Source of the DNA: a candidate division WWE3 bacterium
Lineage (GTDB): Bacteria; Patescibacteriota; WWE3; UBA101185; UBA10185
Assembly: GCA_016182565.1 (NCBI GenBank)
Contig: JACPGI010000005.1
Span: 11,005 to 75,004, forward strand
DNA length: 64,000 bases
Direction: 5' to 3'
The translations under genes and the position numbers were made by a program. Under the pieces are notes generated by a model that did not search any database, had not been told where the DNA came from, and was given only the letters and a program-made list of their open reading frames with translations. Every line of letters starts with the position of its first letter. The stretch's first letter is position 1. Of the stretch, positions 60,357-61,219 are shown piece after piece.

Positions 60357-60517
60357 AATTCATATCTAATCTAAACCCCAACCCCAAAATTTAATAAACT
60401 CACTAACGCTGCACTTGTAGCAACCAGACCCATAGCAGTTATGCTATAATTTTCATGAAATTCAATAGACCAAAGAAATCCAAGAAATCAAATACAATTG
60501 ATAAAGGAGACAAAATC

Positions 60518-61165
60518 ATGAGCACAAAAAGCAATGTTCCACAAATCGTACTTAATGTGTTTAATCGTCGTTTGATGGGGGTGGCCCTGACATTATATGT
60601 TATGTCAATTTCGATCCCTGTAATAGCCTGGCCATCGGACAATCTACCGTTTTCACCGGCGCTCCTGCTGACGATCTTGTTAATTAACTGGTTGGTGCTT
60701 GTGTATGGCGCGGTTCGAGTGAGAAAGATATGTTTACTCTTCCCCCCAACACGTCCCAGTGCTGAAAACCTAGGTGTTTTGTCATTAGTGGTGACCACGA
60801 TCACAGCAGTTGTGTGCGATTTTGTGAGGGCTGTACTTACTGATGGCACTGGAATGTCAGCAAGCTCAGCCACAGCCATAGCCCTCATACTATTTCCGAT
60901 CATCATCTATGTCCGCGCGGCGGCTGTTCACTTAAATTTGCAGATGTATGTGATGCGTGGGGACGGTGTCGTGAAGATCGTAAAGGTACACGACTTTTTC
61001 TATATCCAGAAGTTGCATGTTCCTGAAACCTTTTGGCGATCGACCGGCAAGCCTGGGGGAGTATTTGGTGATTTTAGCGAGGCCACGCCACACGGATCTT
61101 TAGATAGAGCACGAACAATAGCCTCTACCAACGATTTTGTTGTGGAAGTCACACTTTTGGGGTAA
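60518..61165 (+). CDS. Hypothetical membrane protein in a higher-GC islet next to tRNA-Arg. Start placed at the Met after AAAGGAG; the ORF track starts at 60455.
   Basis: About 4 TM helices; GC looks roughly 50 percent. Preceded by an extended -10 (TGcTATAAT at 60442-60450) and followed by a strong hairpin terminator. Confidence 0.45.
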   Translation: MSTKSNVPQIVLNVFNRRLMGVALTLYVMSISIPVIAWPSDNLPFSPALLLTILLINWLVLVYGAVRVRKICLLFPPTRPSAENLGVLSLVVTTITAVVCDFVRAVLTDGTGMSASSATAIALILFPIIIYVRAAAVHLNLQMYVMRGDGVVKIVKVHDFFYIQKLHVPETFWRSTGKPGGVFGDFSEATPHGSLDRARTIASTNDFVVEVTLLG

Positions 61166-61181
61166 GGTTTTCGTATATATA

Positions 61182-61219
61182 CAATCCACGCATACACACT
61201 TGTGCGTGGATTGTTTTAT
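61182..61219 (+). terminator. Rho-independent terminator
   Basis: Perfect 11-bp stem CAATCCACGCA / TGCGTGGATTG with a 10-nt loop, followed by TTTTATC. Confidence 0.6.

Follow-up and report, generated by a model that had tools for sequence, protein, structure and literature searches.

A probable single-gene insert in the hypervariable tRNA-Arg–kef spacer of a candidate division WWE3 genome

Introduction

Phage morons carry their own promoter and terminator, deviate in GC content from their surroundings, and lie between genes that are adjacent in relatives (PMC3594210). Gene 15 of HK97 is an example, and its product, gp15, is a small inner-membrane protein (PMC3594210). The cassette described here lies in a 64,000-nucleotide stretch of DNA, hereafter the window, from a metagenome-assembled genome of candidate division WWE3 (Patescibacteria/CPR). 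Like a moron, it is a single gene for a small membrane protein and lies between genes that adjoin in relatives, and its GC content (0.471) exceeds that of the flanking genes (0.36 and 0.354). It also has a strong predicted terminator and a putative promoter, a conserved extended -10 without a -35. Unlike a moron, it is flanked by chromosomal housekeeping genes with no prophage, and no phage homologues were found. By analogy, we infer that the cassette behaves as a moron does, as an independently expressed add-on gene.

Genomic islands linked to tRNA genes also resemble this locus, which lies 3' of a tRNA gene, has an atypical composition, and varies in content between relatives. However, the cassette is smaller than 1 kb, holds one gene, and has neither an integrase nor a tRNA-derived direct repeat. 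As with integron cassettes, there are single-ORF units that are each followed by an inverted-repeat element, with exchangeable content at a fixed site, but the WWE3 cassettes differ in having their own putative promoters, and no intI lies nearby. We rejected an attC reading of the hairpins, which have perfect short stems and T-tracts without RYYYAAC/GTTRRRY cores; the hairpins appear to be ordinary terminators. The cassette gene further resembles fast-evolving ORFans in being short and lineage-restricted, with 25% identity between its two copies compared with 77% for the neighbouring kef product. Classical ORFans, the subject of Daubin and Ochman in 2004, are reportedly AT-richer than their genome, whereas the higher-GC cassette genes are GC-richer than the AT-rich CPR backbone. 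We would class the cassette as a small islet with one orphan gene in a hypervariable slot next to a tRNA gene, an arrangement of a known kind.

Results

The cassette lies between a tRNA-Arg gene and a gene for a kef-type antiporter (Table 1), and tRNA-Arg also precedes kef in the relatives' loci L003, L005, L007, L012, L022, L092, L093, L094, and L095. The flanks consist of cellular housekeeping genes (tRNA-Arg, kef, ABC-F, and the tmRNA/smpB region), with synteny conserved across WWE3 relatives. Neighbours in the window identified by Pfam were an ABC-F ATPase, a conserved membrane protein of 208 amino acids, and Kef itself, which is 100% identical to an NCBI WWE3 protein and whose start at ATG 61270 is backed by alignment with relatives. 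The ABC-F-type double ATPase gene occupies 58155–59606 on the minus strand, between tRNA-Ser(GCT) and the gene for the 208-aa membrane protein. In L003 and L007, tRNA-Ser lies at, and slightly overlaps, the annotated start of the 208-aa membrane-protein gene, which is followed by a 101-aa ORF with transmembrane (TM) segments that is absent from the window. These differences in ABC-F and tRNA-Ser represent further local rearrangement around the same tRNA cluster.

Upstream of kef, the block GATGnTAtTAT was conserved in an alignment of the window, L005, and L092, all of which have a filled slot, and TGtTATTAT is likely the gene's own promoter. The pattern TGnTAtTAT stands ~20 nt before the kef start in the window, L005 (~1903–1911), and L092 (~1660–1668). 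In L003, where the slot is empty, TGcTAAACT is found at the matching place within the 29-nt spacer before kef. None of these four kef genes has an obvious Shine–Dalgarno (SD) sequence.

Table 1. Features of the tRNA-Arg–kef slot, GC3 outliers of the window, and contents of the slot in relatives (positions refer to the window unless a relative's locus is named)
Feature	Position	Strand	Evidence or remark
tRNA-Arg (anticodon GCG)	60281..60356	+	ARAGORN; Rfam tRNA, 70.4 bits; left border of the variable slot
Inverted repeat, left arm, core CCCCAAAA	60363..60389	+	27 nt, 74% complementary to 61155–61181
Extended -10, TGcTATAAT	60442..60450	+	Read from the sequence; no -35 match
Shine–Dalgarno, AAAGGAG	60503..60509	+	8 nt before ATG 60518; GAGGAG in L005
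CDS, 215-aa orphan membrane protein	60518..61165	+	ORF call, shuffle test, hydropathy; GC3 outlier (0.486)
Inverted repeat, right arm, core TTTTGGGG	61155..61181	+	Overlaps the stop codon
Intrinsic terminator	61181..61219	+	12–14-bp stem, 6-nt loop, then TTTTAT
Likely own promoter of kef, TGtTATTAT	61241..61249	+	Follows the cassette terminator; near the right border of the slot
kef-type cation:proton antiporter	61270..62967	+	Pfam Na_H_Exchanger and TrkA_N; conserved right neighbour
108-aa membrane ORF, tRNA-Cys cassette	8045–8371		GC3 outlier (0.514)
266-aa membrane protein, 17–20 kb island	17231–18031		GC3 outlier (0.479); GC 0.49
595-aa membrane protein, 17–20 kb island	18238–20025		GC3 outlier (0.430); GC 0.47
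Slot in L003, L007, L012			tRNA-Arg to kef 29 nt; empty
Slot in L022			tRNA-Arg to kef 64 nt; empty; GC 0.46
Slot in L005/L011			916-nt insert of the same layout; ORF GC 0.468 vs ~0.38 in neighbours
Slot in L092			Unrelated soluble 100-aa ORF; GC 0.455, GC3 0.515; backbone GC3 0.21–0.28
Upstream of kef in L091			Contig end, no tRNA visible; end of a different higher-GC ORF and terminator directly upstream of kef
Slot in L093	L093 915–4000		3-kb island, five genes; GC 0.43–0.49 vs backbone 0.35
Slot in L094			~1 kb of backbone-GC genes
Slot in L095			540 nt, no called gene

The preliminary description of this stretch, made from the letters alone, placed an extended -10 directly 3' of tRNA-Arg, followed by a ribosome-binding site, a 215-aa multi-TM protein of roughly 50 percent GC, and a terminator with an 11-bp perfect hairpin. 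The elements themselves were recovered, with some correction of the details. The extended -10 begins 86 nt past the tRNA rather than directly behind it. A consensus promoter scanner, which requires a -35, did not call TGcTATAAT because none is present there. The -10 block is kept in L005 as TGATATAAT, together with an upstream block, GACCCATAGC, in the alignment. The ribosome-binding site and the 215-aa ORF, with four predicted TM helices, were found as claimed, and the GC content of the ORF is raised but lower than proposed. The longest ORF in 2000 shuffles of the region had 151 codons compared with 236 observed, the latter corresponding to the NCBI annotation of a 236-aa hypothetical protein that starts at 60455 (HYV31_02945, MBI2414769.1). 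We rejected that start in favour of the 215-aa version, as its ATG follows the -10 by 4 nt and lacks an SD, and the ortholog in L005 aligns from the Met of the 215-aa version. The terminator is strong and its hairpin (61181–61214) is longer than described, with 12 perfect pairs, 14 pairs in the RNA fold, and a folding energy of -21.4 kcal/mol (z -5.87). Analogous hairpins end the cassettes of L005 and L092 and the tRNA-Cys cassette of the window. Read from sequence, the promoter, SD, ORF, and terminator appear to constitute a real and autonomous-looking module.

Two further candidates at the cassette were discarded. A 155-aa antisense ORF (60439–60906) was without any support and was taken as a by-product of the higher-GC coding strand. 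The motif ACCYATAG occurs in the promoter regions of both tRNA-adjacent cassettes, at differing distances from the -10, but was rejected as a shared promoter motif because it is not enriched in the window (4 occurrences vs 3.2 expected).

The protein is predicted by hydropathy to have four TM segments (residues 18–40, 42–69, 82–108, and 111–141) and a soluble C-terminal tail of ~75 residues, and its positive charges are placed as expected of an N-in topology with the C-terminus in the cytoplasm. AlphaFold2, run on the single sequence, likewise modelled four long helices and, after them, a small beta/alpha tail, but with poor confidence (pLDDT 50.6). A word-indexed search of 5.8 billion proteins and an exhaustive HMMER search of 1.84 billion cluster representatives each returned only the protein itself. 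It had no match in Pfam, PHROGs, PADLOC, NCBIfam, or PDB sequences, and none among INPHARED phages, PLSDB plasmids, or IMG/VR. Two Logan contigs carry it and are 99.98–100% identical to the window, and the cassette is present with 100% identity in the groundwater runs SRR12113420 and SRR12113422. Its only homologue was a frameshifted positional ortholog in L005. On the basis of these searches, the protein appears to be an orphan that belongs to no described family. It also seems to evolve very fast.

Synonymous codon choice set the cassette gene apart from the backbone of the window. The ORF has a GC content of 0.471 and a GC3 of 0.486, compared with a backbone GC of 0.37 and mean GC3 of 0.31 (sd 0.056). 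Since GC is 0.323 in the 161 nt upstream of the ORF and 0.366 in the 71 nt downstream, the anomaly is confined to coding sequence. With its own amino acids and backbone codon usage, the ORF would have a predicted GC of 0.406, compared with 0.474 observed and 0.375 in the backbone, so that approximately one-third of the excess stems from amino-acid composition and two-thirds from synonymous choice. The GC3 expected under the same assumptions is 0.294.

Only four of the 54 long ORFs in the window were clear GC3 outliers, and these fall in three segments (Table 1). Each ORF was scored by a likelihood ratio between two codon-usage models, one of the other outliers and one of the backbone. All four outliers had positive ratios, whereas each of the 50 backbone ORFs had a negative one. 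The preliminary description had held that the cassette mirrors a tRNA-Cys cassette and matches the 17–20 kb island in composition, and both statements stood: the tRNA-Cys cassette consists of TTGACA-17-TATAAT, a 108-aa membrane ORF, and a hairpin of -18.9 kcal/mol, and the island genes share the synonymous-codon bias. The codon-usage comparison it had proposed bore this out, as the three segments were the only GC3 outliers and were distinct in bias from every backbone ORF. Its suggestion of a common higher-GC source found no such backing beyond similar GC3. The four higher-GC window proteins were mutually unrelated by blastp, and when the higher-GC ORFs of relatives were included, the only pair related to each other was window/L005. 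Of the island, which lies between L25 and LeuRS, the 595-aa protein matched only itself among 5.8 billion proteins, the 266-aa protein forms a single-member cluster, and the 108- and 266-aa proteins had, at cluster level, no relatives pointing to a donor. Repeated acquisition of higher-GC segments is plausible.

Contents of the slot differed between relatives, from nearly nothing to a 3-kb island (Table 1). In a matrix of Kef identities, the window groups with L005 (77%) and L091 with L092 (74%), while L003 and near-identical loci stand at ~60% from both pairs. The 100-aa ORF of L092 has its own promoter-like TATAAT, an SD, and a hairpin with a 14-bp stem and 6-nt loop. The five genes of the L093 island are two orphan ORFs, ThyX, a 91-aa ORF, and a TIR-domain protein. 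The differing contents identify the tRNA-Arg/kef locus as a hypervariable hot spot. The preliminary description had named conservation as a core gene in related genomes as an outcome that would speak against it; relatives instead have 29–64 nt or entirely different inserts at this place, and on this comparison the 215-aa ORF is a lineage-restricted accessory gene and not a core gene.

Between tRNA-Arg and the 100-aa cassette, L092 (1097–1300) has a second promoter-like site, TAGTAATAT, and an SD, ATAAAGGAGA, the latter with 10 nt identical to the SD region of the window and followed by an ORF of only ~21 codons. These elements could be what is left of an earlier cassette.

The spacer after kef is likewise variable among relatives. 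In L008 (7940–8690), a 199-aa lipoprotein-like ORF with an LSSC lipobox (GC 0.493, GC3 0.51) lies 3' of kef and has the same cassette architecture, with TTGACT...TATAAT, an SD, and a hairpin. It is also present in L003 (6949–7548), L007, L009, L010, and L012, in the lineage with the empty tRNA-Arg slot. L093 has a 203-aa ORF of GC 0.467 between kef and tRNA-Ala (5787–6398). In L005, the tRNA-Ala gene downstream of kef is followed by a toxin-antitoxin pair of the HepT/MNT (nucleotidyltransferase) type (3826–4447); the ORF list for the matching part of the window, at its end, does not include this pair.

The ortholog in L005 (1135–1801) is split by a +1 frameshift near 1310 into ORFs of 73 and 162 amino acids, at a site that is not a homopolymer run. 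The same split copy is found in L006 and L011, and the three loci, which are 100% identical over a 3721-nt overlap, may come from the same sample. With the frameshift corrected, the L005 product and the window protein align collinearly, starting at Met1 and reaching about residue 160, at 25% identity (Smith–Waterman score 87 vs 33 ± 5.5 for shuffles, z 9.7; blastp E 9.5e-5), far below the value for the neighbouring Kef. The promoter and SD blocks are conserved between the two loci, whereas the coding DNA is unalignable. The frameshift could reflect a pseudogene or an assembly error, and the gene may be dispensable or decaying in L005.

The age of the insert and its composition are difficult to reconcile. 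At residues conserved in Kef between the window and L005, four-fold sites were 31% identical compared with 30% expected at random, which indicates that synonymous divergence is saturated. Because the two loci share the cassette with its conserved promoter despite this divergence, the insertion is not recent, and the cassette would be old if it was inherited from their common ancestor. Under such inheritance the window copy should have ameliorated, yet its GC is still above the backbone: GC at four-fold sites is 0.47 in the ORF vs 0.27 in kef in the window, and 0.40 vs 0.36 in L005. Recombination in the conserved flanks, tRNA and kef, may later have exchanged the window copy for a diverged version carried by a relative of higher GC. 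A relative with GC 0.46 and the same tRNA-Arg/kef arrangement does exist (L022), and a published account reports that most individually transferred Patescibacteria genes moved within the phylum (PMC12455944). Selection may alternatively keep the composition of the window copy, or the window and L005 may have acquired their copies independently.

A classical integrase-mediated insertion was not supported. The final 50 nt of the tRNA aligned to the downstream 944 nt with a best local score of 6.5, compared with a shuffle mean of 7.5. An attachment-site duplication, which the preliminary description had proposed to look for, was not seen at the tRNA-Arg or the tRNA-Cys cassette, nor was the tRNA 3' end duplicated in L005, L092, L093, L094, or L095; all local-alignment scores were within the shuffle range. 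No integrase was called in or beside any slot examined in the window and relatives, and no repeat family was found at the window cassette.

In both orthologous cassettes, promoter and ORF stand between the arms of an imperfect inverted repeat. The counterpart arms in L005 lie at 1031–1046 and 1789–1804, and the left-arm block is conserved in the alignment, although the intervening DNA of the window and L005 cannot be aligned. The right core falls in differing reading frames relative to the stop codon (CTT TTG GGG TAA in the window, TTT TGG GGC TAA in L005). The best-conserved core is at the inner ends of the repeat, and the terminator lies outside it. Insertion sequences and MITEs have terminal inverted repeats flanked by a target-site duplication, with or without a transposase; at this repeat, no target-site duplication was seen and no transposase is present. 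The repeat-core 8-mer is about twice as common in the window as expected (11 found, 5.2 expected).

Discussion

The cassette is probably a single-gene insert of ~880 bp in the hypervariable spacer between tRNA-Arg(GCG) and kef of a WWE3 genome. As its sequence elements suggest, the gene would be transcribed from the cassette's own extended -10 promoter and translated from ATG 60518 behind a strong SD, and the strong intrinsic terminator would end transcription and insulate kef, which has its own TGnTATTAT. The product would cross the membrane with four helices, its N-terminus inside, and end in a small domain on the cytoplasmic side. No integrase or att site may have been involved when the DNA entered this permissive spacer beside a tRNA gene, or the traces of both may have eroded. 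Insertion could have taken place in the ancestor of the two WWE3 lineages, or the copy could have been exchanged later by recombination in the conserved flanks. Likely donors would be higher-GC Patescibacteria or their mobile elements.

Two other histories of the gene deserve weight, although we consider neither likely. The cassette could be the remnant of an integrase-mediated, tRNA-targeted element, such as a prophage or genomic island, of which one cargo gene survives. Its position adjoining the tRNA 3' end and its atypical composition are consistent with such a remnant, as is the occupation of the L093 slot by an island with a phage-typical ThyX and a TIR-domain gene. This origin is improbable given that no integrase lies close to this slot, whether in the window or in the relatives examined, that the tRNA 3' end is unduplicated in the window and the five relatives compared, and that the protein had no PHROG matches and none in the phage, plasmid, and IMG/VR collections. 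The gene could instead be native and vertically inherited, a fast-evolving, lineage-specific gene whose GC content arises from its amino acids and selection and whose patchy presence in the slot reflects differential loss. An ortholog at the same position with a conserved promoter, in a synonymously saturated lineage, would be expected of such a gene, and the portion of the GC excess that stems from amino-acid composition and the nearly backbone-like four-fold sites of the L005 copy point in the same direction. However, the GC3 of the window copy is far from the value expected with backbone codon usage (0.486 vs 0.294), and no homologue was found beyond the L005 ortholog in the databases searched. 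Differential loss would also have to account for a slot of 29–64 nt in two lineages and unrelated genes in others, which implies many independent events, and we therefore regard a native origin as unlikely.

Readings that do without an inserted protein-coding gene fare worse. GC-rich islets in AT-rich genomes are often structured RNA, and an islet beside a tRNA, with a reading frame that is broken in L005 and an inverted repeat that brackets the unit, might be a structured non-coding RNA with an incidental ORF. This is largely refuted, and we assign it very little probability: even with matches up to E ≤ 10 admitted, the tRNA itself was the only Rfam match near its threshold, the folded transcript is no more stable than its shuffles (z +0.78), and an ORF of 215–236 codons is far beyond chance. 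GC1 greater than GC2, the SD, and a protein alignment that is collinear from Met1 while the DNA is unalignable all indicate coding sequence. It is also highly improbable that the gene arose de novo from non-coding spacer DNA. The protein is an orphan with low predicted-structure confidence, and L095 has a 540-nt spacer without a called gene at the same place, as such an origin would allow; but the simplest spacers are 29–64 nt, so that ~0.9 kb of DNA needed a source, GC3 is far above the local mutational equilibrium, and four regular TM helices are predicted. A final reading, which we hold to be quite doubtful, is that WWE3/CPR chromosomes have fixed slots beside tRNA genes, from tRNA-Arg to kef, from kef to tRNA-Ala, and perhaps from tRNA-Cys to groES, into which orphan cassettes are swapped without integrase or att site, and that CCCCAAAA...TTTTGGGG is a trace of the undescribed mechanism. 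The cassettes in question are higher-GC units with a promoter, SD, ORF, and terminator with a 14-bp stem and 6-nt loop, and the mechanism would be cassette-mobilising or act at the RNA level.

The single-gene insert in the tRNA-Arg spacer reveals no new mechanism, and it presents two puzzles, namely that the window copy has failed to approach the backbone in GC content and that an inverted repeat is conserved around the cassette. Its most likely role, stated with low confidence, is that of an accessory envelope protein in host-cell or phage interaction. More broadly, single-gene units in permissive tRNA-adjacent spacers illustrate how streamlined CPR genomes gain and turn over accessory genes. 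These units appear to carry independently transcribed genes for membrane or secreted proteins, and such lineage-specific envelope proteins are candidates for a part in the episymbiotic interactions of CPR bacteria with their hosts and phages.
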